A DNA stretch of 64,000 nucleotides, from positions 35,058-99,057 of IMG/VR virus record IMGVR_UViG_3300045988_051354; one strand, 5' to 3'. How positions within the stretch are numbered: position 1 is the first letter of the stretch; every line of letters begins with the position of its first letter. The stretch is from a virus. Below, in pieces: positions 1,189-62,407 of the stretch. The notes beneath the pieces are model-generated. The model was not told the origin of the DNA and ran no database searches. It saw only the letters and a list, made by a program, of their open reading frames with translations. The position numbers and the translations under genes are program-made.

Positions 1189-1297
1189 ATAGTTCGCTAC
1201 ACTATATGCGTTCTCTTATGAACTGCTGTATGTCACCATACAGGTCAGACTATATCACAATCCTATTAGGATTCTCCCCATTTCCACTGTCAATAGC

Positions 1298-1873
1298 TTA
1301 CAGTGTACTCTCTTTCGAGATAGTCGTTGAACTTTCATTACAGAACTCAAATGTATATCCATGATACAACCTATTAGCATTGATAGCTTTATGTAACCCT
1401 TCCACACAAGATGGCTTACCTATAAGGCGTACTGCTTCACTCATAGATTTATATATAGTATCATTCTCTATACATCTGACTGCCTTTGGAGCAGTCTTCC
1501 CCTTCATAGACTTACCAAGTACATCTACAGAGTGTCTTTCATTCTCTGACTGTGTGCACCATTCTAGGTTCTCTACACAGTTATTAGAACGATTGCCATC
1601 TATATGATTAACGTAAGGTTTGTTGTCAGGATTTGGTATGTACGTCTCAGCTACAAGCCTATGACACATATATCTTTTCTTAACACCTTCTTTCATTAAC
1701 ACAATCCTACTGTAACCATCTTGCATAACCTCTACTTTAAGTGATTTGCCAGGATAATTACGAGTTCCAGATTGCTTATACTTGATAATTCTATCTTTAC
1801 TTCTAAAGTTACCTAAAGTACTTACTTCAAAGTACCCTTCATAGTTAGGGATTTCTTTCCAAATTTCTTCCAT
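1298..1873 (-). CDS. HNH homing endonuclease (NUMOD4-like N-terminus) inside the nrdD intervening sequence
   Basis: EIWKEIPNYEGYFEVSTLGNFRS is a NUMOD4-like motif. HIDGNRSNNCVENLEWCTQSEN is an HNH motif. The gene sits between two nrdD coding blocks. Confidence 0.8.
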   Translation of the reverse strand: MEEIWKEIPNYEGYFEVSTLGNFRSKDRIIKYKQSGTRNYPGKSLKVEVMQDGYSRIVLMKEGVKKRYMCHRLVAETYIPNPDNKPYVNHIDGNRSNNCVENLEWCTQSENERHSVDVLGKSMKGKTAPKAVRCIENDTIYKSMSEAVRLIGKPSCVEGLHKAINANRLYHGYTFEFCNESSTTISKESTL

Positions 1874-2014
1874 AATGCTTAGCTGCTGATTGTCTTAATA
1901 CTAATTATTAAGTGCAAAGATAATGTAATTTACTTACATTTCCTAACTTTCTACCATTAATTAATGTTAAGATGTCCCAGCAATTAGAGGAGTTGTTCGA
2001 GATAGATTACTCTA

Positions 2015-3064
2015 TCAAGCTGCGAAATTCACAGGGAACGTTAATATGCACTTAGTCCTCTCCTCGTTAAACCAAGTCATAAACTTCTTCTGTAACCAGT
2101 TCAAAGAATCCCATATGGGCTTAGTTCCATCTGGGAATACAAACTCACCAAATAAACCTTCAAAGTAATTCTTATCAAAATAACTGATATTCCAGAATAC
2201 TGATTGGAAGTTACGAGCAGCTGCTGGTTGATTGATTGAATATACAATCTGTTGGAACTTCTGTTCAATAGTCTTATCAATATTTCTATGTTTATCAACC
2301 ATCTCTTCTGGACGTTTCCAATAATCATCACCCCATTCTTTACGAGCGAAGTAATCGAAATACATTAGGAACTCACCAGTAGCTACTGCTCCAGCGAATT
2401 GTGAGCTGATAGCAAATACCAGATTAACAAACATACCGCAGAAGGAGTCCAGATTCTTAGGCTTGGCAGACAAACCTCCAATTGGCTGTAGCCCTTCAAG
2501 TAGGAACGGATACATAGTGATAGCCACGCAGTAGGGCATAATTGATGTTTCATCATGCTTGTAAAGTTCATGAGATTCCAGTTGTCTAATATACTCCTTA
2601 GCTAAATCTTCACCATATAACTGCCTAATTTTATCTGTAAGGATTGCTCTATTAACTTTAATTACATCACCCTTAAACAACTCTCCATTTAAAGTTACTA
2701 TATTCTTCTCAGTAACATTGGCATTAGCATCATATTTACTACCTGTAGCAGCATTAGATGCTTTGGCATAATCTTTAATAAACTGCTTCTTCCCAGCTAA
2801 TGCTCTGAGTTCAGCTTGTTTATGTCGATACAAAATGAATGCTTTAGCGACATCATAGTAATCACAAGCCATCAAAGCCTTTTCAATTTGATCTTGAAGC
2901 TCTTCTACTGATACTATGTTGTTAATATACAATTCATCTTTAATATCATCCAAAATATCGGAATCAATTGGTTCGTTAACAGCATTGAACGCCTTAGTAA
3001 TAGCCGCGTCAATCTTATTAATATCGAAAGGTTCTACTCTCTTATTTCTTTTAATTACTAACAT
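2015..3064 (-). CDS. nrdD: Anaerobic ribonucleotide reductase NrdD, N-terminal exon (ATP-cone + start of catalytic domain)
   Basis: MLVIKRNKRVEPFDINKIDAAI is ATP-cone-like. It ends ...KCILTFPVNFAA at a TGA and is then interrupted by 826 bp containing the HNH ORF. Confidence 0.7.
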   Translation of the reverse strand: MLVIKRNKRVEPFDINKIDAAITKAFNAVNEPIDSDILDDIKDELYINNIVSVEELQDQIEKALMACDYYDVAKAFILYRHKQAELRALAGKKQFIKDYAKASNAATGSKYDANANVTEKNIVTLNGELFKGDVIKVNRAILTDKIRQLYGEDLAKEYIRQLESHELYKHDETSIMPYCVAITMYPFLLEGLQPIGGLSAKPKNLDSFCGMFVNLVFAISSQFAGAVATGEFLMYFDYFARKEWGDDYWKRPEEMVDKHRNIDKTIEQKFQQIVYSINQPAAARNFQSVFWNISYFDKNYFEGLFGEFVFPDGTKPIWDSLNWLQKKFMTWFNEERTKCILTFPVNFAA

Positions 3065-39960: not shown

Positions 39961-40013
39961 CGGAGGCAGCTGGATTCGAACCAGCGGAACCCTTTCAGAG
40001 CTCGGCACGTTAG
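39961..40013 (-). tRNA. split tRNA-Ser(GCU), 3' half (anticodon-loop 3' part, class-II variable arm, T-arm, acceptor 3')
   Basis: CTAA-CGTGC-C-GAGCTCTGAAAGGGTTC-C-GCTGG-TTCGAAT-CCAGC-TGCCTCC-G. Pairs with the 5' half at 40460..40494. Together with TTG from the 5' half it forms the loop TTGCTAA. Confidence 0.6.
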
Positions 40014-40021
40014 TGACAATA

Positions 40022-40038
40022 TTAGGAATCGAACCTAA
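40022..40038 (-). other. T-arm-like hairpin TTAGG-TTCGATT-CCTAA, 8 nt upstream of the tRNA-Ser(GCU) 3' half (shared insertion-end motif)
   Basis: Near-identical to 44749..44765 and structurally equivalent to 46655..46671. Overlaps the last codons of ORF 40022. Confidence 0.5.
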
Positions 40039-40447
40039 TATTATCTAAAACTGTATCATATAAATAGTCTTCATAATTTAATGGAGTGTTCTGATTAGTC
40101 TTCCTATATGGGATAGGGACATTGATACTCTTTCTGCCATTAATTATTTCAACTGGAACTAGTAACAGAATTTTAGATTCTATATTATATAAAGAGAAGT
40201 AATCAATTTCTGATTTATCATATACATGCACTCCAGTACTAGTAGATGATGTTAATCTCCATACAATAACGTTATCTTCAAATCTCTCTGAGGTTTTACA
40301 TTGTATCTTATTTAGTTTGCCATTGAATTCAGCTATCAAGTCAGCACGTTCATTCTCTCCGAATGAAGTATAGACTGGTATACCTCTCCTAACAAACTCG
40401 GCTATCGTAATAGCCTCTCCAATGTTTCCAATTACTTTACTATTCAT
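40022..40447 (-). CDS. small PD-(D/E)xK-like nuclease inside the insertion that splits tRNA-Ser(GCU)
   Basis: SKVIGNIGEAITIAEFVRRGIPV...ERADLIAEF...KIQCK is the same pattern as ORFs 9454 and 46740. Start moved to the internal ATG because the tracked GTG start overlaps the tRNA 5' half. Confidence 0.5.
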   Translation of the reverse strand: MNSKVIGNIGEAITIAEFVRRGIPVYTSFGENERADLIAEFNGKLNKIQCKTSERFEDNVIVWRLTSSTSTGVHVYDKSEIDYFSLYNIESKILLLVPVEIINGRKSINVPIPYRKTNQNTPLNYEDYLYDTVLDNIRFDS

Positions 40448-40459
40448 ACATACATTATG

Positions 40460-40494
40460 CAATGTGCTGGTATAGACCACTCACCCATACCTCC
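40460..40494 (-). tRNA. split tRNA-Ser(GCU), 5' half (acceptor, D-arm, anticodon stem 5' strand)
   Basis: GGAGGTA-TG-GGTG-AGTGGTCTA-TACC-A-GCACA-TTG. Its acceptor pairs perfectly with TGCCTCC 480 nt away, allowing G-U. Canonical T8, A14, G18G19 and A21. Confidence 0.6.
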
Positions 40495-40558
40495 AATTAC
40501 AGAAGACCTTGCTGTATCATTATTAATGCTGTTCGTCTTCTTAAGCTGTAAAAGATTG

Positions 40559-42547
40559 TTACTTCACAGCTTCAAAGTTGTCTTCGGTTGGATTATCCTT
40601 TTTATCCTCGACAAACATTTCTTTAAATGTCTTCTTAAAAGGAATACTCTTAAGAAGTTCAAATGCTGGGTTGAGATTCTCAGCTGTTTTAGCCATGAAA
40701 CTACCAGCAGTATTTTCATTACCATAAACAGTCACTTGTCCAAGATGGATATGTTCATACATCTCTGCGGATGCTTCAGCAATACCTTTAAGCTGATCCA
40801 CTGTCTTGTATTGAACAATCATTTGTGGAGTCATACCACATTCAATCATCTTCTCTACTGCCTTTGCAGGAGCCATTTCAACAGCAGTAATCTTGTCTGC
40901 TTCTGCCATCAAAGATGCTCTCTTACCTTCAGCCTCTGCAAGCAACTTTCTCTTAGTACCTTCAGCTTCAGCTTCAAGTTGCATCTGAGTTGCATTTGCC
41001 TTAGCTTCTGCCTCCTTAAGAATTTCAGCAGCTTTAGCTTCTGCCTTAAGAATAGCTTCTTGCTTTACAGCTTCAGCATCAATAATGGCTTTCTCCTTAG
41101 CTTTATTAGCAGGCACAATTACCGTTGCATTTAATTCAGCTTCTTTAGCTTTGGCTTCAGCTTCTTTAATTTCTGCAATCTTCTCTTGCTCGGTTCTAGC
41201 AATAGTAGTTTCTGCATCCACTTTAGAAATACCTGCAACCTTATCGGCATCAGCAGCAGCCTTTGCAGCTTCTCCTTTAGCCTTAGACACTTCAATTGTA
41301 GCCATATGCTCGGCTACTCCAGCCTGCTTATTAGCTTCAGCTGTCTTCTTACGAGCTTCAGACTCATATTCAGCAGTCCTAGCCTCCTTCTCTTGAACAG
41401 CTTTAATTGTCTCAGCCTCCTGATTCTGTTGAGCAGCAGCAATACGAATTTGCTTAGCTGATTCAGCTTCTTGTTCTTTAGCAGCTGCTTCCGCTTTAGA
41501 TTTAGCCATATTAGCTTTAGCTTGTGCATCCCATTCAGTCTGTTGAGAAATTGCAATAGACTCCTGCTCTGCTACCTTAGAAAGCTTCTCAGCGTTAGCT
41601 TTAGCTACTCCTACTTCCTGCTCTTTCTGTTGATCTGCAATAGCAATACGTTGTTCCTTCTGCTGCTCTGACAGTTTAACTTCCTGCTCCTTAGTAGTTT
41701 CGGCTAATCTAATTGCTTTATCCTTATTAGTTTCAGCAATAGTAGTCTCTTGGTCCTTAAGAGTAATAGCAATGGCTACTTTCTGGTCTCTAGTCGTTTC
41801 AGCTACTTTAGTCTCCCTTTCCTTAGTAGTAAGGGCAATTTGAATTGCTCCTTTCTTCTCTTCTTCAGCAATAGCAGCTTCTGCCTGTGCTCTAGCCTTA
41901 GTAGTTTCTTTCTGACCTAGATTCTCAATATAATTAGCAGCATCTCTGATGTCACTAATATTGATATTAATCAGATACAAACCCAATTTGTTTAATTCAG
42001 TGTTAATATTGTCTCTGGCTTGAGTTAAGAACTTATCTCTGTTAGAATTAAGTTCCTCAATTTCCATAGAAGCTACAATAAGCCTCATTTGGCCATATAC
42101 GATGTCTGAAATTAAACTCTCTTTATCTGTATCATCAACTCCAAGTAATCTATTAGCAGCATTCTGCATAATTAATGGGTCTTGGCTGATTGCTACAGTG
42201 ACTGTAGTAGGAACAGTAACACGAATATTCTGGGCTGATAATGCATCCTTGAGAGTTAAATTCAACTGAATAGGACGCATTGACATTACTTCATATCCCT
42301 GAATGATAGGCCATACAAATGCAGCTCCACCGTGATACACTCTAGCAGTTTTAATTTCTACTTCCCTGCTGACTTGGTTCCCTTTGGCATCAAGTTCATT
42401 TACCTTCTCTTTGTGAGAACCAGTTTTACCATAAACTACTAATAGTTCATCAGATTTACATTTACGATAACGAGATAAAATCCCAATGATAGTAATAATT
42501 GCTATTAATACAATTACTCCTACGATAATTAATGTTGTCATTTCCAT
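40559..42547 (-). CDS. Flotillin-like SPFH/band-7 protein
   Basis: N-terminal TM helix, then an SPFH core (ARVYHGGAAFVWPIIQGYEVMSMRPIQLNL...IRVTVPTTVTVAI). A flotillin-like Ala/Glu-rich coiled-coil region of about 350 aa follows. Confidence 0.7.
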   Translation of the reverse strand: MEMTTLIIVGVIVLIAIITIIGILSRYRKCKSDELLVVYGKTGSHKEKVNELDAKGNQVSREVEIKTARVYHGGAAFVWPIIQGYEVMSMRPIQLNLTLKDALSAQNIRVTVPTTVTVAISQDPLIMQNAANRLLGVDDTDKESLISDIVYGQMRLIVASMEIEELNSNRDKFLTQARDNINTELNKLGLYLININISDIRDAANYIENLGQKETTKARAQAEAAIAEEEKKGAIQIALTTKERETKVAETTRDQKVAIAITLKDQETTIAETNKDKAIRLAETTKEQEVKLSEQQKEQRIAIADQQKEQEVGVAKANAEKLSKVAEQESIAISQQTEWDAQAKANMAKSKAEAAAKEQEAESAKQIRIAAAQQNQEAETIKAVQEKEARTAEYESEARKKTAEANKQAGVAEHMATIEVSKAKGEAAKAAADADKVAGISKVDAETTIARTEQEKIAEIKEAEAKAKEAELNATVIVPANKAKEKAIIDAEAVKQEAILKAEAKAAEILKEAEAKANATQMQLEAEAEGTKRKLLAEAEGKRASLMAEADKITAVEMAPAKAVEKMIECGMTPQMIVQYKTVDQLKGIAEASAEMYEHIHLGQVTVYGNENTAGSFMAKTAENLNPAFELLKSIPFKKTFKEMFVEDKKDNPTEDNFEAVK

Positions 42548-42558
42548 CTTATGAGTCT

Positions 42559-43077
42559 TTAATCTATGTACAATGTGTTATCCATAACCTCACGAATTGT
42601 AACCACTTGATTAACCGCATATGAAGTACCTGAAATAGAAACGAGTTCTACTTCTCTAGATGCTCCACTTATATTTATAAAAGCTAAATAGCGTTTATCA
42701 TCTAAGCGAACATATATTCTAGCTGGTCTTCCTGCTAAGTATACAAGAGGTTCGTCGGTTGGAAAGTTCTGTAATTTCATACAGAATTTATATAAATGAT
42801 ACAGCATAAACACAAATACAAGACCTATAAAGAATCCTATTAACCAATCAATCCAGGTTATCTCATAACCTAGTAGTTGTTTAATAGAAGTCCATCCTCC
42901 AAATCCCATCAGGAAGTGAATAAGACCTTTAAATGAAACAACATCACCAATGTCGAAATCGGCATCTCCATCGAAGTCCACATCAACATCAAGTTCACCT
43001 GCAACCCATGATATTATGAATTGCAAGATAAAGATACCATAGGCAACGCCACCTATGATATAATACACATCACTCAT
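42559..43077 (-). CDS. NfeD-like membrane protein (flotillin partner; TM helices + C-terminal OB-fold)
   Basis: Three hydrophobic helices. A C-terminal beta-rich domain (RIYVRLDDKRYLAFINISGASREVELVSISG). Sits immediately upstream of the flotillin gene, as in nfeD-floT (yuaF-yuaG) operons. Confidence 0.55.
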   Translation of the reverse strand: MSDVYYIIGGVAYGIFILQFIISWVAGELDVDVDFDGDADFDIGDVVSFKGLIHFLMGFGGWTSIKQLLGYEITWIDWLIGFFIGLVFVFMLYHLYKFCMKLQNFPTDEPLVYLAGRPARIYVRLDDKRYLAFINISGASREVELVSISGTSYAVNQVVTIREVMDNTLYID

Positions 43078-43108
43078 CTTGTTAATAATTTAATCTGTTA
43101 ATAAATAG

Positions 43109-43183
43109 TGGGACAGGATGGAGTCGAACCATCATCTCTGAATTTTCAGTCCAGCGCGAACTGACCACCTGCGCTACTGCCCC
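43109..43183 (-). tRNA. tRNA-Phe(GAA)
   Basis: Acceptor GGGGCAG/CTGTCCC. Anticodon stem CTGGA/TTCAG with loop CTGAAAA. T-arm GATGG-TTCGACT-CCATC. Confidence 0.7.
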
Positions 43184-43459
43184 ATATTGCCTACACATAC
43201 GTCTTCACTGGATTTTATGCTTTATTACGCCAGTTGCTTTGGACAACCTAAATCCTTCAGTGCTGTACAATCTTAAAGGCGCCATACAGACTGCCATCGC
43301 ACCTACTCCCATTATCGTGTCACGCAACGTATCCACATCCACCTCTAGGACTTTCACCTAGACCACATCCTCGGCATTATAGTATCTTAGTGAATAATAA
43401 ACAATGAAACAAACTGGAAATTAATTTTAAAGTTAATATTATGTCTATAAGATACTAAG

Positions 43460-43533
43460 GGTGTTATGTCAGAATCGAACTGACGACCTATTGAACCACA
43501 ATCAAGTGCTCTAACCAACTGAGCTAATAACAC
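43460..43533 (-). tRNA. tRNA-His(GUG) with genomically encoded G-1
   Basis: G-GTGTTAT-TA-GCTC-AGTTGGTTA-GAGC...loop TTGTGGT...GTCAG-TTCGATT-CTGAC-ATAACAC-C. The extra 5' G pairs with discriminator C. Confidence 0.75.
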
Positions 43534-43542
43534 CATATATAG

Positions 43543-44049
43543 TTACTCATTCTCGTAACCTTCGCGCACTGCATTTGCAAATACTTGTTTACACATCTCG
43601 TATTCTAGAATGGCTAGTGCTAAGTCTTCTCCTACGTCTTCTACAAACTTGTCTCGGTTATCAGTCTCGTCAAGTTCGTTTAATACCGCTATCAAGTATT
43701 CTAGTAGTTCAAGACATCTATTGTAGCTTTCCCCAACTTTATTGATAATGGCTATCCTATCATTGCTTCTCTTATAGTACTTATGGGTTGAATAATTACA
43801 GTATAACACTACTAATGCACATATAAGTGTAGTAGTAGTGAATGCTTCATTTATATAACATAAGATACTGTGAGTTACAGTAGCAATTAATACAACTGTA
43901 TTAGCATAAAACATCCAATTTAAAGACTTGAGAGCTTTACGGTGTGATAATAAATTATCAACCTCTTCTTTTACCTCGTTAAGCGATTCTAATTCTTTTT
44001 CATACTGTTCACATGATACTTCAAGTAGTTCTTCACTCATATTATTCAA
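43543..44049 (-). CDS. hypothetical membrane protein
   Basis: 168 aa with a central TM region. Confidence 0.45.
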   Translation of the reverse strand: MNNMSEELLEVSCEQYEKELESLNEVKEEVDNLLSHRKALKSLNWMFYANTVVLIATVTHSILCYINEAFTTTTLICALVVLYCNYSTHKYYKRSNDRIAIINKVGESYNRCLELLEYLIAVLNELDETDNRDKFVEDVGEDLALAILEYEMCKQVFANAVREGYENE

Positions 44050-44062
44050 TTTAGTTTAATAG

Positions 44063-44135
44063 TGGACCGTGTGAGATTTGAACTCCTCCTTCATCTTGCA
44101 AGGATGATGTGCTCCCGGATTACACTACACAGCCC
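44063..44135 (-). tRNA. degenerate tRNA-like, anticodon UGC (Ala-like)
   Basis: Acceptor GGGCTGT/ACGGTCC. Anticodon stem TCATC/GATGA with loop CTTGCAA. The T-stem is only 3 bp (AGGAG/CTCAC) and the variable loop is 3 nt. Confidence 0.4.
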
Positions 44136-44238
44136 AGATTTAGTCTCACTATCGTAGGACTATAAGCTTCCAACGTCCGACTGGCTACGGAAGGTTATTT
44201 ACCGGTCTAATAACCTATTATTCATTTTATATGCTTTG

Positions 44239-44466
44239 TTACTTCTTAGTTAAGTACCTGTACACATCTTCGCTACTACTAGATACTACGATCATTACAC
44301 CTATCCAGGAGCTAATTACAAACAGTGCCAGAACTAGTAACATTCCATAGTCGAACTCGTAACGTTCTTTATTTCTTTGCCTTACTTTGTACTCAATAAT
44401 TAATCCGATTATGGTACGTAATAAAGCAGCAATGCATCCAGCCGAATAAATCCATAAGAACAACAT
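44239..44466 (-). CDS. small membrane protein (tandem paralogue of 44468..44677)
   Basis: Two TM helices. Shares SWIGV with its neighbour. Confidence 0.4.
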   Translation of the reverse strand: MLFLWIYSAGCIAALLRTIIGLIIEYKVRQRNKERYEFDYGMLLVLALFVISSWIGVMIVVSSSSEDVYRYLTKK

Positions 44467-44467
44467 A

Positions 44468-44677
44468 CTACTTCTTTCTAAACATCACTATACCTGGAGA
44501 TACAAATACTATAACTGCAACAACACCAATCCATGAAGTTATTACAAGAGTTAATTCCATTAATAAGTCACACAAGTTGTAAGTGTAATTAGAATTTCTC
44601 TTATAGTCACGATATTCATAGAAACACACAGCCATCAAAGCAACTACACATCCGATAATATAAATAATCAGCATCAT
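44468..44677 (-). CDS. small membrane protein (tandem paralogue of 44239..44466)
   Basis: Two TM helices. SWIGVVAV. Confidence 0.4.
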   Translation of the reverse strand: MMLIIYIIGCVVALMAVCFYEYRDYKRNSNYTYNLCDLLMELTLVITSWIGVVAVIVFVSPGIVMFRKK

Positions 44678-44702
44678 ACATTTTTAATTATTAGTTAATA
44701 AG

Positions 44703-44740
44703 TACCCCGACTGCGATTCGAACGCAGATATGTGGCTTAG
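44703..44740 (-). tRNA. split tRNA-Arg(UCU), 3' half
   Basis: CTAA-GCCAC-ATAT-CTGCG-TTCGAAT-CGCAG-TCGGGGT-A. Confidence 0.65.
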
Positions 44741-44748
44741 TATAAGAA

Positions 44749-44765
44749 CTAGGAGTCGAACCTAA
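44749..44765 (-). other. T-arm-like hairpin TTAGG-TTCGACT-CCTAG, 8 nt upstream of the tRNA-Arg(UCU) 3' half (shared insertion-end motif)
   Basis: See 40022..40038. Overlaps the stop codon of the HNH ORF. Confidence 0.5.
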
Positions 44766-45370
44766 TTCTTATTGTTATTAATTTCATTTTTATGGTAACG
44801 GTAATAGGAACGTTCTCCACACTTGTTCTTAGACTTATAAGTATCAAGCTGTGAATCACAGTTAGGACATATGCATCGTAAATTATCTCTACGATTGTTA
44901 GATGCATGTCCGTCTATATGGTCAATGATAAAGACCAGCTCTTTACCATTCCAGATAGGCTTCATACCACATATAGCACATACTCCACCTTGCTCTTTTA
45001 GAATATCTTTCTTGAAGGCCTTAGGAGAGTAGTTAGCTCTCATTATACTTTCATCACCGTCCAAAAGCTTCTTGTAAGCAAGCATATGAGCATGTTCAAA
45101 TTGACATTTAGGACCACAGTACTTGCCATAACTTCCGTTATAACTAATAAGTTCTGCACCACAGTTTAAACAGTATTTGTACTTCCTATTGAATGTTTCT
45201 TTAGGATTAATTTTACGTTTAATTGGTAACTCTATGCCAAGTCTACGCGCTACATTCTTAATATTAGCACCTGAACAACCATATCTTCTTCCTATTTCCT
45301 CATAACTGAGCTTATCTATCAAAATTAAATGCTCAAGTTGAGCTTTCTCGTTAATCCATTTACTTGTCAT
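44762..45370 (-). CDS. HNH homing endonuclease with N-terminal HTH, inside the insertion that splits tRNA-Arg(UCU)
   Basis: HTH LSYEEIGRRYGCSGANIKNVARRLGI. HNH motif VCAICG...FIIDHIDGHASNNRRDNLRCICPNCDSQ. Confidence 0.75.
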   Translation of the reverse strand: MTSKWINEKAQLEHLILIDKLSYEEIGRRYGCSGANIKNVARRLGIELPIKRKINPKETFNRKYKYCLNCGAELISYNGSYGKYCGPKCQFEHAHMLAYKKLLDGDESIMRANYSPKAFKKDILKEQGGVCAICGMKPIWNGKELVFIIDHIDGHASNNRRDNLRCICPNCDSQLDTYKSKNKCGERSYYRYHKNEINNNKN

Positions 45371-45486
45371 ATTCGTCTAAATTAGAAATTCGTACCTCAA
45401 AGATACGAATCTTTTACGAATTAAACAAGTAAATGGATGTTTTGTTGAAATTAATAACAGTGAGTTACGGACTCACCAGCCGTATG

Positions 45487-45520
45487 AAGGCCACTGTTCT
45501 ATCCCTTGAACTATCGAGGC
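45487..45520 (-). tRNA. split tRNA-Arg(UCU), 5' half
   Basis: GCCTCGA-TA-GTTC-AAGGGATA-GAAC-A-GTGGC-CTT. The D-arm is perfect. The acceptor pairs with TCGGGGT, and anticodon stem GTGGC pairs with GCCAC in the 3' half 746 nt away. The reconstituted loop is CTTCTAA. Confidence 0.65.
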
Positions 45521-45524
45521 ATTA

Positions 45525-45576
45525 ACAGAAGACATTGTAATCATATGTAACATGACACCTGCTGTATGTCTTCTTA
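45525..45576 (-). promoter_or_regulatory. conserved inverted-repeat element immediately upstream of the tRNA-Arg(UCU) 5' half
   Basis: acagaagac-[34 nt]-gctgtatgtcttctta. Confidence 0.45.
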
Positions 45577-45588
45577 GGCGATACTATT

Positions 45589-45936
45589 TTATGAACATAA
45601 AGCTATCAGTTCTTTAGTAGTCCTTTTATATTGCAATCTGTTATATCTTTCTCCCTTACATATTGCACAACTACAGGGAGTACTCATGGTTTTAAACCTA
45701 AAGGTATTCTTAGCATTATAAAGTTCAGTCCAGCTTATTGCTTTACGCCACTTATTACTGCTACAGATATACCAATGCGGAAATGACCGTTTAATCCTAG
45801 TAATATACTTCTGGTCTTTCTTTAGGTTCCTCCACAATTTGTTTCTGTGAATTCTTGATTCTTTCATGTTTAGTTCTTCCATCGTCTCGTCCACTAATAT
45901 TAACAATGTCCTGACTTGGATTGTAACCAGTACCAA
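45589..45936 (-). CDS. hypothetical basic Cys-containing protein
   Basis: 115 aa. Partly overlaps ORF 45797..45979. Confidence 0.35.
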   Translation of the reverse strand: MVLVTIQVRTLLILVDETMEELNMKESRIHRNKLWRNLKKDQKYITRIKRSFPHWYICSSNKWRKAISWTELYNAKNTFRFKTMSTPCSCAICKGERYNRLQYKRTTKELIALCS

Positions 45937-45993
45937 TGAATTTCTTCATATCTAGTCCCGATAAATTGATTGTCTTCATACGATAATTAAATT

Positions 45994-46281
45994 TTAATAG
46001 TTAAATACACTGTGATACTTTAGCCAATCTCTATAAGCTTTAGCATCCATGTTATAGGAATAATTCCAGTGAAACCTTCTCAGCTCCTTAATAAGTTCTG
46101 TTCGTATTTCATACGTGAGACGCACACCAGGTGCTGTATTAGATATATAGAATTGTTCTTTAACAAATGAGAAATACCCGTATAATATAGGTGTGCGCTT
46201 TCCCTTAAACTTATTAAGTAGAATAGCATGCAAACGGCTGTTATCCTTGCTGTACTTCGTTGGATATAGTGTCACGTTCAT
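45994..46281 (-). CDS. hypothetical protein
   Basis: 95 aa. Confidence 0.4.
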   Translation of the reverse strand: MNVTLYPTKYSKDNSRLHAILLNKFKGKRTPILYGYFSFVKEQFYISNTAPGVRLTYEIRTELIKELRRFHWNYSYNMDAKAYRDWLKYHSVFNY

Positions 46282-46567
46282 TGTCTAATATAGCAACAGC
46301 TAGACTATAACCATTATATAATGTCCCAATAAGACGTTTAAGTTTCTTCTTTATCTTCCTAGGAAGTTTTGGAAGATTAACATTCATAAGCTCTTCAGCT
46401 TCTTTATGTCTGGCTCTAACAGCAAGTTCTAAGTTCTTAGGGACATCTTCGGAATCAAAGAATGCGTTCAATACCGGCTCCTCTGGTAACAATCTTATGA
46501 CTCTGTAAGCTACTCTTGCTTTCTTATTGTTACTGAGCTGATCAACGTGTTTAAATTTCAATTTCAT
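46241..46567 (-). CDS. hypothetical protein
   Basis: 108 aa. Confidence 0.4.
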   Translation of the reverse strand: MKLKFKHVDQLSNNKKARVAYRVIRLLPEEPVLNAFFDSEDVPKNLELAVRARHKEAEELMNVNLPKLPRKIKKKLKRLIGTLYNGYSLAVAILDNERDTISNEVQQG

Positions 46568-46592
46568 AATCTTTCATTAATAAATTAATAAG

Positions 46593-46646
46593 AGGAAGGA
46601 CAGGGATTCGAACCCTGGGATCGCTGTTACACGACCAACAGTTTTG
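46593..46646 (-). tRNA. orphan tRNA 3' half (stem, class-II variable arm, T-arm, acceptor 3') directly after tRNA-Ser(UGA)
   Basis: CAAAA-CTGTT-GGTCGTGTAACAGCGATCC-CAGGG-TTCGAAT-CCCTG-TCCTTCC-T. No 5' half lies within 100 nt. A possible 5' partner is at 47143..47200. Confidence 0.45.
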
Positions 46647-46738
46647 AGGAAGCAGTGGGACTCCAACCCACACATCACTGTTACATGATTACTGGTGCTT
46701 TTCAAGAGCACTGCCTTAGCAATTAGGCTTATACTTCC
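46647..46738 (-). tRNA. tRNA-Ser(UGA), class II (non-canonical T-loop TTGGAGT)
   Basis: GGAAGTA-TA-AGCC..GGC-A-GTGCT-CTTGAAA-AGCAC-[23-nt variable arm]-GTGGG-TTGGAGT-CCCAC-TGCTTCC-T. Confidence 0.6.
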
Positions 46739-46739
46739 A

Positions 46740-47132
46740 TTACAATGAAACTTTATATTTGTCCCATTTATCCGTAAGAGTTAGAGTACTTTTAACTGTA
46801 ATCTCACTTGAAGGAATCTCGTACATATCGCCATTGACTACTACAATAAATAATATATCACATGTAGAATTATCAAAGTGTCTAATCTTTGATTGTCCAG
46901 AGGAGCCTCCACAATTCTTTAATAGAACTTCATAGTTGCCACTCTTTGATAGGTATTGAGTAGTTTTAACAGAAACTCTCTTCAGCCCATCTCTATCTAT
47001 TGCTATATCATATTTTTGAGTATCATTTAAAGGAATCAGGACAGGAATACAATTAGTTGTATAATAAGCTATAGCTCTACCCAGCCCTAAATTGCCTTGA
47101 TGTGATTTGTAGTCGCTTTCCCAAGCGTTCAT
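46740..47132 (-). CDS. small PD-(D/E)xK-like nuclease (third paralogue) immediately upstream of tRNA-Ser(UGA)
   Basis: LGLGRAIAYYTTNCIPVLIPL...YDIAIDRDGLKRVSVK is the same pattern as ORFs 9454 and 40022. Confidence 0.5.
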   Translation of the reverse strand: MNAWESDYKSHQGNLGLGRAIAYYTTNCIPVLIPLNDTQKYDIAIDRDGLKRVSVKTTQYLSKSGNYEVLLKNCGGSSGQSKIRHFDNSTCDILFIVVVNGDMYEIPSSEITVKSTLTLTDKWDKYKVSL

Positions 47133-47142
47133 TTACATAACA

Positions 47143-47200
47143 TTAAAAATTTCTAACTGTTTATCTAACCGTTGCATTAAGCCAACTCTGCCACCCTTCC
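47143..47200 (-). tRNA. tRNA 5'-fragment-like element (Ser-like acceptor + 3-bp D-stem, long D-loop + anticodon-arm-like hairpin)
   Basis: GGAAGGG-TG-GCA-GAGTTGGCTTAA-TGC-A-ACGGT-TAGATAA-ACAGT resembles a tRNA-Ser 5' portion. The acceptor is complementary to TCCTTCC of the orphan 3' half at 46593. Confidence 0.3.
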
Positions 47201-48788: not shown

Positions 48789-48807
48789 TCATTTATGGAT
48801 TATATGG

Positions 48808-48822
48808 TTGCGGAGATGGGAG
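48808..48822. repeat. 15-nt direct repeat ttgcggagatgggag (copy of the tRNA(CAU) 49535 3' end) flanking the GIY-YIG gene; second copy at 49534..49548
   Basis: Exact 15-mer at both ends of the 48823..49473 cassette. The distal copy lies inside a 9-bp palindrome, AGATGGGAG...CTCCCATCT. Confidence 0.6.
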
Positions 48823-49473
48823 CTATTGTGCATACTCCCATCTATATCCGTATGCTGTCTTAGTCTTGTGCTTAGCTGCATTAGAGATATGGCTTCTAAC
48901 ACCTCCGTTATATGTCTTAGCATAACCATTATCAACACACCAATGTGCTGCGTCAGCCACGCTATTAAACACTTGCACAAGTATATCTTCGTTGTACTGT
49001 TCTATCTTTACTGGAGGTTTACAGGAGCCACAATGTGACTCGCTATTACTGTGGGATCTCTTGATATCCTTCACTACTTTGGACACTGTATCTGGATGAC
49101 ATCCTACTATTTTAGCAGTCTCTTTCATCGAATGTCTAGCAGCGTAGAGCTCACGAATTTCATCATAGTTCCAAATAATAGAACCATCTCCACCGGTAGT
49201 GGCATTATAACCATTACCATAGGTTTTAAATTCATTTATCCAGTAAGTTTCTCTTCCGCTAGATTCCTTTGACGAGCACTCTTCTAGCATTTCTATGCTA
49301 AATGAATCAATTCCATATTTATTCATGGCTCTATACAAAGGTCTATCTTTGCATCTCTCCTTCTTATAATCTCTACAGTGTTCTTTCCATCTCTTACTAA
49401 CGGACGAAGTAGTTTTACCTATATACTTCTTTCCATTTACATGGTTAGTTATGCAGTAAATATAAGACATCAA
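48823..49473 (-). CDS. GIY-YIG homing endonuclease (I-TevI/Seg-like)
   Basis: YIYCITNHVNGKKYIGKT (GIY and YIG), conserved R/E/N, and a C-terminal DNA-binding region. Flanked by a 15-nt direct repeat of a tRNA 3' end. Confidence 0.8.
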   Translation of the reverse strand: MMSYIYCITNHVNGKKYIGKTTSSVSKRWKEHCRDYKKERCKDRPLYRAMNKYGIDSFSIEMLEECSSKESSGRETYWINEFKTYGNGYNATTGGDGSIIWNYDEIRELYAARHSMKETAKIVGCHPDTVSKVVKDIKRSHSNSESHCGSCKPPVKIEQYNEDILVQVFNSVADAAHWCVDNGYAKTYNGGVRSHISNAAKHKTKTAYGYRWEYAQ

Positions 49474-49534
49474 GCTTTAGTCGAATTAGCGTTACCCGAA
49501 TCTCACCACGTGGAGGTTTCGACTATGAGATTCT

Positions 49535-49612
49535 TGCGGAGATGGGAGTCGAACCCAATATAACTAGCTTATGAGACTAGTATGATTTATATATCCGTTT
49601 CATTCCTCCGCA
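49535..49612 (-). tRNA. tRNA(CAU) (third CAU tRNA; extended D-arm)
   Basis: Acceptor TGCGGAG/CTCCGCA. Anticodon stem CTAGT/GCTAG with loop CTCATAA. T-arm TTGGG-TTCGACT-CCCAT. The D-loop is unusually long, at about 13 nt. Confidence 0.5.
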
Positions 49613-51828: not shown

Positions 51829-53547
51829 CTAGCCTTGTTGAGTGGACACAGTGCGCTTATTATAAATTGGCTTCTCAGACTTTGCAGGCTTACTCTGCAC
51901 GCTTGCATTCTTTCTCGGTGTGTCCTTCTCTAACACCATCATATTCAAGAGTTCTTGATTCATCATGTAATCGAACAACTCTTTAGGCGTACTAGGATTC
52001 TGGAATCTCTTCTCTCCGGTTATAAATCCAGCAGTGGACTGACTTAATCCGTTAACAAAGAAACAGTTAGAAACATTGCGAATCAATTCAACTTTAGGCT
52101 TAGTCTGTTTAGAGGCTAAATGCCAAATAATTAATTTAAACTGTTTAACAAACTCTTTGCTAAATCCAGCTTTTAAGAGTTTAGATTTAAATTCAATGAA
52201 TTGTTCACTGGTGTTTCTTAAATGTCCCAATGCTCCGCTAATTACCAAACAGCCATTTGGAAATTCACCTTCCCGAATTCCTCCAGATTTAATAGATATA
52301 AGCATATCTGCAATCATAGACAGAGTTGGACTAGTTACTAAGGCTTCCTCAGTATCTGAAATCCACTTACTAGTAGGAGTTGTACCTTCCCACTTACGTA
52401 AATCACATCTATTGTTGGCAAATACACCATACATGCCAGAGAACGCTACAGGCATTAATTCGGAATGATACATAGCATAAGCCTTACCAACACTATAAGC
52501 AGAAGTTTCAGTAGCTTCTATCTCAGAATAAGCAGAATTACTAATGTCTCTAATTACTAATAGTGGTGATACTTTCTTTAGCTTAGCATTCTTCACGAAT
52601 GTATTAAAACTAACATCTATAGAAGAACCCATGAATTCTGGTACGAACTCTGCAATTTTATCAAGCCCAAATGGCTTAAATAAATTATGCACAAATCCGT
52701 CATTACAGGGCTTTCTACGAGTCTTCAGCCATCTCTGATACTTCTCTGCAAGACCTTGTTGTTTGAGGAATTTAGAGCCTACTAGCAGTGCTAGAGCCTT
52801 TCCTGGAACTGTATCAAAGTCAATGTCGAGTAATTTCTTATGGCTTATTAATTGCTGCCATTTCATAACTGTACCGCTGTTCTTCATCTTTCTATACTTA
52901 CGATAAGATGAATAGTCTCCTTCCTCTTTCGGTTTACCATAAAGGCCTTCAGCTAGATATTTAGCAACTATGTTACGGGCTTTCGCCTCGTCTGTCTTAC
53001 ATATAGTATTAGCTCGAACTCTAGGAAGATACTTCTTTACTAAGTCACATGTTTGCCCTTCTACTAAACCAGCATAAATAGTCTTTCTAAAGAAATCCCA
53101 ATCTAGTCTATGCTTGTATCCATGTAATTGAGCATCCATTACTAACATATTAATAAAGTCCTTCCAGCATCCTGCTGCCGCAAAGTAAGGCATATTGGCA
53201 TGGAATGTAGATTTATGATATGTTGCCAACCACATCATTCTTAATAAACCTTCATTCTTTAGACCACCTCCTCGCTGTGTGTCTAAGTAAATAACTCCAT
53301 TAGGAGTAACTACTCTACATTTACGTGTAATAAGTCTTACATAGGCAGTAAATTTGACACACAGCTTTGGATTGGCCTTCCACAGTTCATACATATCTTG
53401 ACTAACGTCTTCATAAGAACGTGGTTCAAGATAGTGCGCAAGGTTTACGAATTGGTCCACAAATACTTTAGTAGGATTTGTATACCTTCGTCCCCCACCT
53501 TGAGAGGGCTTAGAGCAAGCCTTTTTAGGCCTTTCATTCATTTCCAT
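51829..53547 (-). CDS. hypothetical large protein (572 aa)
   Basis: Long ORF. No family recognised by eye. Confidence 0.6.
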   Translation of the reverse strand: MEMNERPKKACSKPSQGGGRRYTNPTKVFVDQFVNLAHYLEPRSYEDVSQDMYELWKANPKLCVKFTAYVRLITRKCRVVTPNGVIYLDTQRGGGLKNEGLLRMMWLATYHKSTFHANMPYFAAAGCWKDFINMLVMDAQLHGYKHRLDWDFFRKTIYAGLVEGQTCDLVKKYLPRVRANTICKTDEAKARNIVAKYLAEGLYGKPKEEGDYSSYRKYRKMKNSGTVMKWQQLISHKKLLDIDFDTVPGKALALLVGSKFLKQQGLAEKYQRWLKTRRKPCNDGFVHNLFKPFGLDKIAEFVPEFMGSSIDVSFNTFVKNAKLKKVSPLLVIRDISNSAYSEIEATETSAYSVGKAYAMYHSELMPVAFSGMYGVFANNRCDLRKWEGTTPTSKWISDTEEALVTSPTLSMIADMLISIKSGGIREGEFPNGCLVISGALGHLRNTSEQFIEFKSKLLKAGFSKEFVKQFKLIIWHLASKQTKPKVELIRNVSNCFFVNGLSQSTAGFITGEKRFQNPSTPKELFDYMMNQELLNMMVLEKDTPRKNASVQSKPAKSEKPIYNKRTVSTQQG

Positions 53548-53908
53548 CTTGTAAAATTAAATTAGCAGGTTAATCTGAGAGTTCTTTATTCTAATTGATA
53601 AAATGGGACACATAGACATTGAGCCAGCTTAATACAACTCGCTACTTACACACTACATGCCCCATATCAAATGAGGAAAGAGGTTCACTTGATGACCTAT
53701 CTACGTGCTGATTATAACGTAGACCGTGCAGATTCTCTCTCACACAATACTATGATGGACTCAAACCATCTCCACCCCTAGGTGAACTTTCCGTTATTCG
53801 AATAGTACAGGTTTCAACTCTTTATAACGCCTTTAAGTCAAAGTATACTCCGGAATATACTCTTAGTTCATCAGACCAAGTTTGCGCTTAGAATTATCTA
53901 AGATTAAG

Positions 53909-55431: not shown

Positions 55432-55470
55432 TGGACCATCGCGGACTCGAACCGCGGTCTTCACAACTCT
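55432..55470 (-). tRNA. orphan tRNA 3' fragment (T-arm CGCGG-TTCGAGT-CCGCG + acceptor 3' ATGGTCC-A)
   Basis: No complementary 5' acceptor lies within 100 nt. The nearest candidate is GGGCCAT at 56039, beyond about 600 nt of ORF-free sequence. Confidence 0.35.
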
Positions 55471-56166
55471 AAATAATAAGATTACGTGTGTCTCTATTTT
55501 ATTACATCAGCTGTTGAGTTCAGCATGTAGACAGTTTTATTAGTCTTATCCTGGAACCAGGTAATTAGGCTGTAATAGCCAAACCAGTACGCCAAAAGCT
55601 AATTTACAAACTACCAAACTTAAAGGTTCAGAAGCTGACGCTTCCAAACCTGGACTGACCGAAGTCGTCCCTCCACCACTCCATTTACGTTGGAGAACGT
55701 TTCTATTTGTAACCCATAGATAGGCAGTGGAGATTTCAGCTCTACTAACCTTTGGCTTTCAAGTTAATGCATCTAAGCTTCACTGTAACCTATAGGTACT
55801 ATGATTCTTCCCCGAAGGTCTCGTTATAACACTTAGATACAAACCTCTTCTGTTTCTAGGTCTCCCCATTAACCCGACTTAATCAATATGATATCGATAA
55901 GCCACAGCTTAAGCTGCCATTCTTACTTCAGTGTTGCCACTTGAAATTTGTGTATCATTTTATAAGAGTTGGTACGAACTCTACACGTCTTACTACCCAG
56001 TCATCATGAATCAATTCCATGTATGGCCCATAGTAGCATGATTATACTCTCATGCCAGGAGTGGGAAACAACCCAAAGCTTTCAGTATCCTCCTGTGCCA
56101 CTGGCGTACCCATTTCAGACTTAAAAGCTTATCAATGAATGAAAAAATGAATAGCACTGCAGAATG

Positions 56167-60987: not shown

Positions 60988-62407
60988 TAGCCCAAGCCTA
61001 TTTCACAACAAACTTGGGTTAAAGTAAATAACAACTTTATATATTATGATACACTTATTTGCATTTTACACCTAAAACTTAGAATCTTGCATGCAACTGC
61101 AATCTATTACATTTGTCTGACAAGGACAAACAACTAAGAAACTGGTGCCCTCAATGTCTTGGGATGTTATTGAGTTTTTTAAAAGTCCTTATAATCCTCT
61201 CTTTTAAGATAACTTAGAACTTTAGGTCTAGACTTGTACTTCGTCTATCCAAGTTTGTACTGTGCGAATACTTCGGATTATAGAGTGTATAGCACAATCC
61301 TCTAAAGTTTAGAGTATACACAATCTTTTGGGACTTTGTTATACTATTCTTGCCCAGGGAGTAGCGTAAACCGTCATATTAAACCGACATGTATCAATCC
61401 ACGGCCCCTTGATACTGGATCTACATTATTAGTAACGAATATAGTGCCTGTCTTTCCAGGCTGTCACCAAACTTATAAATCGGAATTGGTTTCCTGTACG
61501 GTTTATCCTTAAACTTTTAAGTGCGTTACTAGTAAACCGCCTAAAAGATACAGCACTACTGGTTTAAACTACCCTACCAGCAAGTAAAGCTCGTCTTTCC
61601 GAGCCGCCATGCTATCCCTTGTGTCACAGTACTCGCAACATACCATAACAGAACGTTCCTTTAGCCGATTACCCACACACCCCTACGTACAATGGTGGAA
61701 CGCAGCTTTCGCTACGATTAACAACTCTAGCTTTCTTCCCCTTCTTGGTTCTCCGTCATTACGGTTTGTATTATTGAAAGCGTGGAGGAATGGTCCTCAC
61801 ATTACTACTTAAAGCAATGTGGTTTTACCATTATTTACTCACAAATACATTTTCTTTGTGAGTCTATCATAGCTCTTGTACGCATTACTCGGCAGAGGAG
61901 CCTTACCGAAACCTACAATGTAGGACGCTGTTTAAAACTTAAAAATTAATATAATTAAAACAATCATGTGGACTCCTGCTTTAACGCATGAAGCAGGAAC
62001 GTTTAACTTTTGGCACTACATACATTATGTCCGTTTTGTGATGTAGGGATTCTAAGTATTTGCAACTACTCAGAAGAGCTAAACCAGGTTGCCTATCCTT
62101 TACAGCGATAGGCGTTCTGTTTATTTATAACTGCATCCAACAATTACCATGCCAAGCAAATTCTGCATCACCGATTCTCATTCTCCACTCAGAACCATCA
62201 TCAGTATAGAATTCATATTGTCTTCTGAAAGCTTCTTCACTTGAAATTGTTGTTGTATGTCCGTCTGACCAAATTATCTTATCCATAATTGTATATGTAA
62301 CTAACCTTTACGTTACGAGGTTTTAAATTGTTAATCAGACTCCTGCATATAGCAGAAGTTTCGTCCAGTCTCATCAGTGATTATTTTATAGACTCCTGGT
62401 TGTCTTA

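Follow-up and report, generated by a model that had tools for sequence, protein, structure and literature searches.

In a 64,000-nucleotide stretch of viral DNA from IMG/VR record IMGVR_UViG_3300045988_051354 (positions 35,058 to 99,057; hereafter, the window), two tRNA genes, namely, tRNA-Ser(GCU) at locus A and tRNA-Arg(UCU) at locus B, are each split in the anticodon loop by a homing-endonuclease cassette that ends in a stand-alone minihelix resembling the top half of a tRNA. In every lineage that carries it, the minihelix brings the cassette flush with the 3′ exon. At a third locus, C, a cassette of related make-up carries a whole spare tRNA-Ser(UGA), which replaces the disrupted gene whose two halves persist as remnants. 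The functional reading with the most support is that the minihelix is a processing signal, a tRNA mimic recognized by RNase P or RNase Z, as an initial annotation of the window had proposed; in its favor are the helix of 7 + 5 base pairs (bp), the invariant canonical T loop, the discriminator followed by C74, and the strong covariation.

All three loci, and everything else in this finding, lie on the minus strand of the window, which carries a 25-gene tRNA array including two amber-suppressor-type tRNAs. Near-identical contigs of ~180 kilobases (kb) each are present in IMG/VR. These features are consistent with the description of the Zeta crAss-like gut phages, whose genomes (145–192 kb) abound in tRNA genes, suppressors among them, and in homing endonucleases (PMC7886860, PMC12386605). 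The point of departure was a hairpin said to recur at three places, each time followed by 8 nucleotides (nt) and a tRNA 3′ half. All three strings are found on the minus strand (Table 1); as reported, the hairpins of A and B differ at 2 of 17 positions and overlap the 3′ ends of unrelated open reading frames (ORFs), one encoding a PDDEXK_5 and the other an HNH_3 endonuclease. A tRNA 3′ half does follow every motif, and ARAGORN, with introns allowed, pairs these 3′ halves with upstream 5′ halves. What did not survive is the equivalence of the three loci: the motif at C is the T arm of a whole tRNA-Ser(UGA), and the halves that flank it are defective.

The minihelix as a mimic of the tRNA top half

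At loci A and B, the 5-bp stem originally described is the inner portion of a helix whose real length is 12 bp. A 7-bp acceptor-like pairing (GATAATA/TATTGTC at A, ATAAGAA/TTCTTAT at B) is joined to a 5-bp T stem and a 7-nt T loop (TTCGATT at A, TTCGACT at B), after which come an unpaired N73 and a C. The 8-nt spacing of the initial annotation is thus real but is no mere spacer, as it consists of the 7-nt acceptor 3′ strand and the discriminator, and the C that follows it is C74. The elements of a tRNA top half are all in place: the 12-bp acceptor-plus-T helix, a loop of the form U54-U55-C56-R57-A58-N-Y, and a discriminator. A canonical tRNA gene is present only at locus C (tRNA-Ser(UGA)); A and B have no D or anticodon arm, and the acceptor partner adjoins the T stem directly. 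The minihelix also overlaps the endonuclease genes, such that the final five codons and the stop codon of the locus A ORF, and the stop codon of the locus B ORF (in the T-stem 5′ strand), fall within it.

Comparison of 13 minihelix variants (four from tRNA-Ser(GCU), namely, those of the window, L002, L202, and L311, and nine from tRNA-Arg(UCU)) provides evidence that this structure is selected. In the alignment of these variants, 98.7% of cells are paired, as against 42–50% when the strands are slid by 1–3 columns; nine of the 12 pairs have changed on both sides, and none of 500 shuffles reaches the observed covariation score. The length is always 7 + 5 bp followed by N73 and C, and the T loop always reads TTCGA(C/T/A)T, even where it is non-coding, with the closing G53-C61 pair and the adjacent 52-62 pair near invariant. 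Furthermore, the variants contain 13 G·U pairs on the sense strand, which on the other strand would be A·C mismatches, which shows that selection acts on the structure in tRNA-sense RNA and not in DNA. Selection at the RNA level, as first suspected for the A and B motif, is thereby borne out, and the same G·U pairs speak against the suggestion that the motif is a recombination site based on T-arm identity.

The minihelix is readily distinguished from the T arms of ordinary tRNAs. A covariance model yields full-length matches (31–57 bits; 55.2 at A and 57.2 at B) only at minihelix loci, ordinary tRNAs giving partial T-arm matches. When the 64-kb window was scanned on both strands for hairpins with at least 11 of 12 bp and a T-loop-like 7-nt loop, only A, B, and the T arm of tRNA-Trp emerged. 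Among 76 distinct T-arm occurrences in all fetched loci, the flanks pair at 0–5 of 7 positions in the 67 that belong to ordinary tRNAs and at 7 of 7 in the nine that belong to minihelix variants. Judged by its pairing and covariation, the A/B minihelix is a tRNA top-half mimic under selection. It stands alone in related genomes as well, rather than occurring there solely within intact tRNAs. A T-arm pattern search of IMG/VR located further minihelices only in this phage clade, the corresponding search of bacterial and archaeal genomes returned one ordinary tRNA only, and megablast against INPHARED phages found no relatives.

The two nucleotides that follow the helix conform to a rule of the entire array. 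C74 is encoded after the discriminator in all 25 tRNA genes of the window and in the three 3′ exons (minus-strand tRNA 3′ ends with C74 include 23209, 24111, 30373 ... 60913); the next base is other than C in 27 of the 28 cases (T 15, A 7, G 5, C 1), and C75-A76 is never encoded. Such uniformity implies a single 3′-end processing rule together with CCA completion, and, given that all 25 genes encode C74, the mimic carries the complete genomic 3′-end signature of the phage, N73-C74.

A shared scaffold in the tRNA-Arg(UCU) insertions

In addition to the minihelix, the insertions in tRNA-Arg(UCU) possess a scaffold common to six diverged lineages: L231 (the window type), L234/L209, L235, L241, L233, and L286. 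Its order in all six is C35, the 5′ junction, (A/T)(T/C)AC(G/A)G, a linker of 1–3 nt, hairpin P-a, helix P-b (8–14 bp), 0–5 nt, the minihelix, N73-C74, the 3′ junction, and U36. At locus B, P-b loops out the ORF; 115 nt precede the ORF, and nothing but the minihelix follows it. Pairing extends to 100% of cells in P-a, in P-b, and in the anticodon stem formed across the intron, with pairs changed on both sides in 5 of 7, 13 of 14, and 5 of 5 instances, respectively, although these percentages lean towards structure, because the alignment was fitted to the helices. The sequences of P-b are unrelated across the six lineages, and it is the formation of predicted helices by unrelated sequences at the same places in six lineages that constitutes the evidence for the scaffold.

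A pseudoknot between the P-a loop and intron nucleotides 2–6, beside the 5′ junction, is possible and is regarded here as a candidate. It is paired in 78% of cells, with one of seven pairs changed on both sides and an invariant C-G; it is also sterically tight, with 1–2 loop residues spanning a 5-bp helix, and one common variant breaks a pair. The remaining architecture is supported independently by a natural deletion. Introns of the locus B relatives vary in size (764, 749, 739, 737, 727, 626, and 101 nt), and the shortest, which is ORF-less, gives a 174-nt mini pre-tRNA (L090:540-713) whose predicted minimum free energy (MFE) fold (z = -5.97) is a cloverleaf with a four-way junction composed of the anticodon stem, P-a, P-b (the ORF-enclosing helix), and the minihelix.

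The tRNA-Ser(GCU) introns are simpler, in that they have neither P-a nor P-b and share with the tRNA-Arg(UCU) introns only a 5′ ATA(A/C) and the minihelix; at locus A, 11 nt precede the ORF. Complementary 7–9-mers that might form a long-range helix around the ORF in these introns (window, L202, and L311) are within chance expectation for AT-rich sequence. Two candidate structures at the 5′ junction were discarded. Pairing of the intron 5′ end with the minihelix 3′ strand, which would close an acceptor stem for RNase P, is not general, as it amounts to 6 of 7 pairs at locus A of the window and in L002, 3–4 of 7 in L202 and L311, and 3 of 7 in the one locus B intron compared, that of the window. 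A hairpin spanning the junction (ACATT GCAT AATGT at A, TGGCC TTCATAC GGCTG at B) is not conserved in L202.

Insertion into the anticodon loop and homing

The comparison with L085, in which the tRNA genes of loci A and C are uninterrupted, places the insertion site of all three cassettes between anticodon-loop positions 35 and 36, because the DNA boundary at C falls after C74: the ancestral G35 is replaced by the C74 of the cassette, and the remnant resumes at A36. At A and B the register is ambiguous by one base at the RNA level, since position 35 is a C in both GCU and UCU. The 5′ remnant at C retains the acceptor, the D arm, and the 5′ strand of the anticodon stem and has lost the 5′ side of the loop; the endonuclease ORF ends 2 nt before the cassette tRNA, and the hairpin at 46671-46655 is the T arm of that tRNA, which ends in T73-C74 at 46647-46646. 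ARAGORN also reports a "tRNA-Leu(CAA)" with a 520-nt insertion at this locus, which is probably spurious, considering that L085 reveals a disrupted tRNA-Ser(UGA) whose loop has been lost. The cassette tRNA-Ser(UGA) itself (46646-46738, minus strand) has an unusual elbow: its T loop, TTGGAGT, has a G where C56 is nearly universal, and its D loop contains only one G; the two may be a swapped elbow pair.

That the motif marks the boundary of a homing element, one of the possibilities raised at the outset, agrees with what is found at each locus: every motif is the 3′ end of a homing-endonuclease cassette (PDDEXK_5 at A and C, HNH_3 at B), and relatives carry uninterrupted alleles. In addition to L085, these include L318-L320 for locus A and L023, L064, and L035 for tRNA-Arg(UCU). 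The intronless tRNA-Ser(GCU) of L320 equals the window exons joined as ...ATTGC/TAACG..., save for two point differences elsewhere. When L233 is compared with L209, and L235 with L234, the tRNA bodies are common while the anticodon-stem allele goes with the intron type, a sequence pattern that is that of co-conversion.

The two endonuclease families differ in their distribution. The 214 PDDEXK_5 homologues are nearly all in phage tRNA arrays and occur in three settings: true group I introns of ~600 nt with T/...G ends and conserved blocks, located at the same 35/36 site of phage tRNA-Asn and tRNA-Lys; cassettes in which an entire tRNA, matching the target in specificity, adjoins the defective remnants of that target (locus C, L096-L098, L099-L102, and L315); and the minihelix type in tRNA-Ser(GCU). 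Bona fide group I introns of the first setting are present in L115, L120, L124, L127, L140, L143, L148, L162, and L103. The HNH homologues, 1715 in number, are in IMG/VR nearly always beside or inside tRNA-Arg(UCU) genes. In many other phages, their relatives (L236-L273, e.g., L239:1221-1306 and L254:1172-1259) adjoin an unusual tRNA-Arg(UCU) of 85–88 nt with a long variable arm, which may be a cleavage-resistant variant of the target.

Comparison with established classes of intervening sequence

Group I introns do not account for A and B, where there are no U/G ends, no intron core (P3–P9, ~200 nt or more), and no Rfam match. The introns of A, B, and all relatives end in ...N73-C in the 35/36 register, with 5′ exons ending in C35; were the break placed at 34/35 instead, the introns would close with A, C, or T. 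At locus A, too, a terminal G is absent, as are the sequence blocks conserved at either end of group I introns. The absence of any Rfam family at A and B carries little weight as regards group I introns, because Rfam also missed true group I introns that contain ORFs, presumably as a result of the ORF insertion.

Other known devices fit no better. An archaeal intron was rejected as there is no bulge-helix-bulge motif in the predicted fold: the 3′ junction lies beside the minihelix plus 2 nt and the 5′ junction in the open anticodon loop. For the 5′ element of B, a hepatitis delta virus (HDV)-like or theta ribozyme was considered and set aside, there being only two helices of P1/P2-like topology with 1-nt joiners and no Rfam HDV match; hammerhead, pistol, and hatchet ribozymes, like the HDV-like fold, misfit in topology or core and have no Rfam matches there. 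Rfam does detect the true HDV-like match of the window (49533-49470, minus strand), unlike anything at A or B. Integrase-mediated insertion into a tRNA 3′ end, which would leave attL and attR, is also rejected. No integrase or recombinase is encoded at the three loci, the 3′ half is not duplicated at A or B, and these elements are endonuclease cassettes of 0.45–0.75 kb situated in the anticodon loop.

Integrity of the split tRNAs

The exons look functional by several sequence-based measures. In every minihelix lineage (about 10 diverged lineages), they fold into perfect cloverleaves, and the differences among lineages are compensated in each of the four stems. ORF-less derivatives of 626 and 101 nt keep both intron ends, and the 101-nt form occurs with the same junction in six contigs, five of which retain the minihelix, P-a, P-b, and intact exons. 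Defects in the exons are confined to cassettes that bring a whole tRNA, as at locus C of the window and in L096-L098; exons that flank a minihelix are intact. AGA accounts for 53% of the Arg codons and AGY for 33% of those for Ser, yet no other gene for either tRNA is present in the window. The predicted exon–exon junctions of the split tRNAs are ...CACATTGCTAACGTGCC... and ...GTGGCCTTCTAAGCCAC...; the Arg(UCU) junction GGATAGAACAGTGGCCTTCTAAGCCACATATCTGCG is absent from IMG/VR DNA, and for the Ser(GCU) junction CTATACCAGCACATTGCTAACGTGCCGAGC intronless DNA alleles exist.

A proposed route of excision and its alternatives

On balance, the minihelix probably serves as an internal target for RNase Z/P, whose cut would release the 3′ exon in the course of splicing that depends on proteins; this proposal is drawn from the sequence comparisons above. 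The exons of the pre-tRNA would fold into the cloverleaf, with the insertion hanging from the anticodon stem as a four-way junction. A host tRNA 3′-end endonuclease of the RNase Z type would take the minihelix for a tRNA and, by cutting after N73 or C74, generate the start of the 3′ exon, and RNase P could cut on the 5′ side of the minihelix. A further cut after C35 and ligation would restore the anticodon loop, the outcome being a ribozyme-free, protein-dependent intron. The products of RNase Z (3′-OH and 5′-P) need an ATP-dependent ligase and not RtcB. As for the 5′ cut, when nucleotides are counted from the first of the D-stem 3′ strand (22-25, 26, 27-31, 32-35), C35 is number 14, as is C74 when the count begins at the T-stem 3′ strand, and both junctions read N-C immediately before the break; one may speculate about a ruler enzyme anchored at the elbow that measures either arm of the L. 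More tentatively still, and somewhat short of an even chance in our estimation, A and B could represent an intron class new to bacteria and their viruses: mobile, ribozyme-free, excised by RNase Z (possibly with RNase P), and resealed by a ligase. Classified conservatively, each is a mobile intervening sequence that carries an endonuclease gene and occupies the anticodon loop of a tRNA.

Several considerations weigh against excision and ligation. No enzyme or structure accounts for the 5′ cut after C35, and no RNA ligase or repair gene was found among the ~50 window ORFs scanned, which cover 64 kb of a ~180-kb genome; protein-dependent tRNA splicing is not known in bacteria. The pseudoknot and P-a are restricted to the introns of Arg(UCU), those of Ser(GCU) having only 12–25 nt before the ORF, and the helices proposed for the scaffold guided the manual registration of its alignment. 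A cut by RNase P at the minihelix would strip the stop codon from several of the endonuclease ORFs. The 3′ exon of locus B in L085 has a 1-nt deletion in its T loop. Lastly, recurrent homing into intact alleles could also keep the exons intact and fresh-looking, because intronless alleles of the locus A exons exist and co-conversion is evident.

These points merge into an account in which the tRNAs are dead and the element is selfish, the minihelix, P-b, and 5′ hairpin or pseudoknot serving the endonuclease only. Cuts by RNase Z/P would then define or stabilize the ends of the endonuclease mRNA and free it from the polycistronic tRNA transcript, with no ligation. Plant mitochondrial t-elements work in this way (PMC1920247), an mRNA fragment would depend on structure at both ends for its stability, and costly insertions can be fixed by homing drive; the lack of a ligase or 5′-site nuclease among the ~50 ORFs, the T-loop deletion in L085, and the existence of intronless locus A alleles with identical exons all sit comfortably with it. 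It is harder to reconcile with exons that are intact and compensated in each of the roughly 10 minihelix lineages and degraded beside a spare tRNA, with the 101-nt derivatives, which have no endonuclease to serve and yet keep the minihelix, P-a, P-b, and exons in five of six contigs, and with the flush fit between cassette and exon, for which an mRNA-end signal has no need. AGA, moreover, is the main Arg codon. We consider this account unlikely, though by no means negligible. A new small ribozyme, in which the 5′ hairpin/pseudoknot self-cleaves or self-splices, possibly together with the minihelix and tRNA body, and the mimic is scaffolding, is improbable. The candidate pseudoknot abuts the 5′ junction and carries an invariant C-G along with one compensated pair, small ribozyme-related RNAs are plentiful in the window (HDV-like, RAGATH-1 hammerhead, and RAGATH-34), and a neighboring GIY-YIG cassette uses a ribozyme; against this stand the absence of any Rfam ribozyme family at the loci (E<=1), the scant 1–2 loop residues for a 5-bp helix, the common variant that breaks a pair, the small number of invariant nucleotides, and Ser(GCU) introns that dispense with the 5′ element altogether.

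Two further explanations would deny the minihelix any role as a processed RNA, and both are very improbable. Were it a functionless vestige, the hairpin and 8 nt would be a decaying leftover of the tRNA 3′ end duplicated at the first insertion, of which locus C and L096-L098 show the whole-tRNA version; its T arm does resemble that of the intact tRNA-Arg(UCU) of related phages (TTAGG TTCGATT CCTAG). Decay, however, would not gain and keep seven extra compensated base pairs across 13 variants, nor keep an invariant T loop, and in ordinary tRNAs that share the T arm no more than 0–5 of the 7 positions pair; covariation already disfavors a vestige. The other possibility is a DNA-level element, an inverted repeat acting as a cruciform or as a recognition or recombination site for the endonucleases or for tRNA-gene recombination. 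Its exact position at the cassette boundary and the occurrence of nearly the same T arm with two unrelated endonuclease families would suit such a role; the A·C mismatches that its 13 sense-strand G·U pairs entail on the complement, an endonuclease target (the insertion site) in the anticodon loop and not the T arm, and the lack of an integrase or recombinase at the three loci do not.

Other elements in the window

A fourth endonuclease cassette lies between tRNA-Sup(CUA) and tRNA-Ile, where a tRNA-like gene is followed directly by an HDV-like ribozyme match, a GIY-YIG ORF, and a short repeat of the tRNA 3′ end (Table 1). The array thus contains three kinds of device that would keep a tRNA usable beside a mobile endonuclease, namely, a ribozyme, a spare tRNA, and a tRNA mimic. 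Elsewhere, two untranslated segments between tRNA genes (43184-43458 and 44136-44238) have a G+C content above that of their surroundings and no Rfam match. An ORF of 572 amino acids (51829-53547) beside the RAGATH-34 RNA matches PHROG 850, "RNA-binding protein". The gene for NrdD, the anaerobic ribonucleotide reductase, is in two pieces on the minus strand (window 385-3064), of which 2015-3064 encodes the ATP cone and N-terminal part and 385-1188 the C-terminal part, separated by an HNH_3/NUMOD4 ORF at 1298-1873; presumably, the gene either is interrupted by an intron or exists as genes in pieces.

Table 1. Features of the split tRNA loci and of other elements, in window coordinates
Feature	Position	Strand	Sequence or structure	Basis
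Locus A
Hairpin string	40038-40022	-	TTAGGTTCGATTCCTAA + TATTGTCA + CTAAC...
5′ exon, tRNA-Ser(GCU) positions 1-35	40459..40494	-	GGAGGTATGGGTGAGTGGTCTATACCAGCACATTGC	ARAGORN, introns allowed
Intervening sequence, 446 nt	40013..40458	-	starts ATAATGT, ends minihelix + A73 + C74
Endonuclease ORF, 141 amino acids, PD-(D/E)XK, I-Ssp6803I family	40022..40447	-		Pfam PDDEXK_5, E=6.7e-21
Minihelix	40015..40045	-	GATAATA-TTAGG / TTCGATT / CCTAA-TATTGTC; A73 40014, C74 40013
3′ exon, tRNA-Ser(GCU) position 36 to C74	39960..40012	-		ARAGORN
Locus B
Hairpin string	44765-44749	-	TTAGGTTCGACTCCTAG + TTCTTATA + CTAAG...
5′ exon, tRNA-Arg(UCU) positions 1-35	45486..45520	-	GCCTCGATAGTTCAAGGGATAGAACAGTGGCCTTC	ARAGORN, introns allowed
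Intervening sequence, 746 nt	44740..45485	-	starts ATACGG, ends minihelix + A73 + C74
5′ element	45460..45484	-	hairpin P-a GTGAG TCCGTAA CTCAC; loop complementary to intron nt 2-6 (TACGG)
P-b 5′ strand	45447..45459	-	TGTTATTAATTTC; pairs with 44785-44773
HNH endonuclease ORF, 202 amino acids	44762..45370	-		Pfam HNH_3, E=1.1e-5
P-b 3′ strand	44773..44785	-	GAAATTAATAACA; directly adjoins minihelix
Minihelix	44742..44772	-	ATAAGAA-TTAGG / TTCGACT / CCTAG-TTCTTAT; A73 44741, C74 44740
3′ exon, tRNA-Arg(UCU) position 36 to C74	44702..44739	-		ARAGORN
Locus C
Hairpin string	46671-46655	-	GTGGGTTGGAGTCCCAC + TGCTTCCT + CAAAACTGTT...
5′ remnant of ancestral tRNA-Ser(UGA)	47168..47200	-		comparison with intact gene in L085
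Endonuclease ORF, 130 amino acids, PD-(D/E)XK	46740..47132	-		Pfam PDDEXK_5, E=7.2e-9
Complete divergent tRNA-Ser(UGA)	46646..46738	-		ARAGORN Ser(tga); Rfam tRNA, 46.2 bits
Displaced 3′ remnant of ancestral tRNA-Ser(UGA)	46592..46645	-	resumes at A36	L085 alignment
Other elements
Fourth endonuclease cassette	48807-49612	-
tRNA-like gene, anticodon CAT	49612-49534	-		not called by ARAGORN or Rfam
HDV-like/theta ribozyme match	49533-49470	-	directly abuts upstream tRNA-like 3′ end	Rfam
GIY-YIG Seg-like endonuclease ORF	49473-48823	-
15-nt repeat of tRNA 3′ end, + C	48822-48807	-	CTCCCATCTCCGCAA
RAGATH-34 RNA	53804-53901			86.9 bits
RAGATH-1 hammerhead	62333-62406			82.6 bits
Weak transfer-messenger RNA (tmRNA)-like match	55439-56012			26.9 bits, below gathering threshold

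Relation to known systems and implications

The closest relatives in genetic behavior are the group I tRNA introns with I-Ssp6803I-type endonucleases, with which A and B share phage tRNA hosts, the 35/36 site, presence–absence polymorphism, and co-conversion, and A also the PDDEXK_5 family. They differ from these introns in having no ribozyme, no terminal G, only 12–115 nt of non-coding sequence, and a 3′ end made of a tRNA minihelix, and in missing the conserved 5′ block (AAAAAGTTAGCAGCC...) and 3′ block (...AAAGTCCAG...GTAAAG). In terms of the RNA signal, the parallels lie elsewhere. The mascRNA element of MALAT1 is a tRNA-like signal cut by RNase P and RNase Z. Plant mitochondrial t-elements, similarly to the minihelix, are partial tRNA mimics with acceptor/T-arm geometry and a T loop that mark cut sites within longer transcripts (PMC1920247). 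These elements, however, define the ends of mRNAs or long noncoding RNAs in eukaryotic organelles and nuclei and need no ligation, whereas the A/B minihelix is located in a tRNA anticodon loop, flush with the exon, within a mobile phage cassette, where its usefulness would require ligation.

Further comparisons are instructive in the same manner. Free-standing endonucleases of the T4 SegB type reside in phage tRNA arrays, target the tRNA genes of relatives, and promote gene conversion (PMC2330249, PMC13096335), but their genes lie between intact tRNAs, whereas those described here are inside a tRNA gene and bring a spare tRNA (C) or a mimic (A and B). Theta HDV-like ribozymes are also RNA devices beside a phage tRNA that set a tRNA-related end (PMC10879173); they self-cleave after a complete tRNA, whereas the minihelix, in which no features of a ribozyme are seen, presumably acts by attracting protein or ribonucleoprotein enzymes. 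The protein-spliced, split, and permuted tRNAs of archaea and eukaryotes share the interruption of the anticodon loop and a removal that needs an endonuclease and a ligase (PMC4090602, PMC3400036). A and B differ from them in lacking a bulge-helix-bulge, in their position (35/36 rather than 37/38), in their bacterial/phage setting, and in having no known splicing endonuclease. Our literature searches found no description of endonuclease-bearing tRNA insertions that end in a minihelix.

Mobile endonuclease genes normally spare their host gene by means of a self-splicing intron or intein or by an intergenic position. This single phage array offers two other solutions: a spare tRNA, and a tRNA mimic that the tRNA-processing machinery of the cell should cut. 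If the proposed excision is correct, a new class of intron would have evolved that renders homing endonucleases harmless without a ribozyme. Were the split tRNAs indeed restored, the bacterial world would have its first pathway of tRNA splicing that depends on proteins, and the minihelix would provide a small, naturally occurring blueprint for programmable cleavage of RNA by RNase Z/P. The tRNA inventories of gut phages would likewise need revision, because standard tRNA finders miss these genes, here the decoder of the main Arg codon of the phage. The 174-nt natural substrate makes the finding directly testable.

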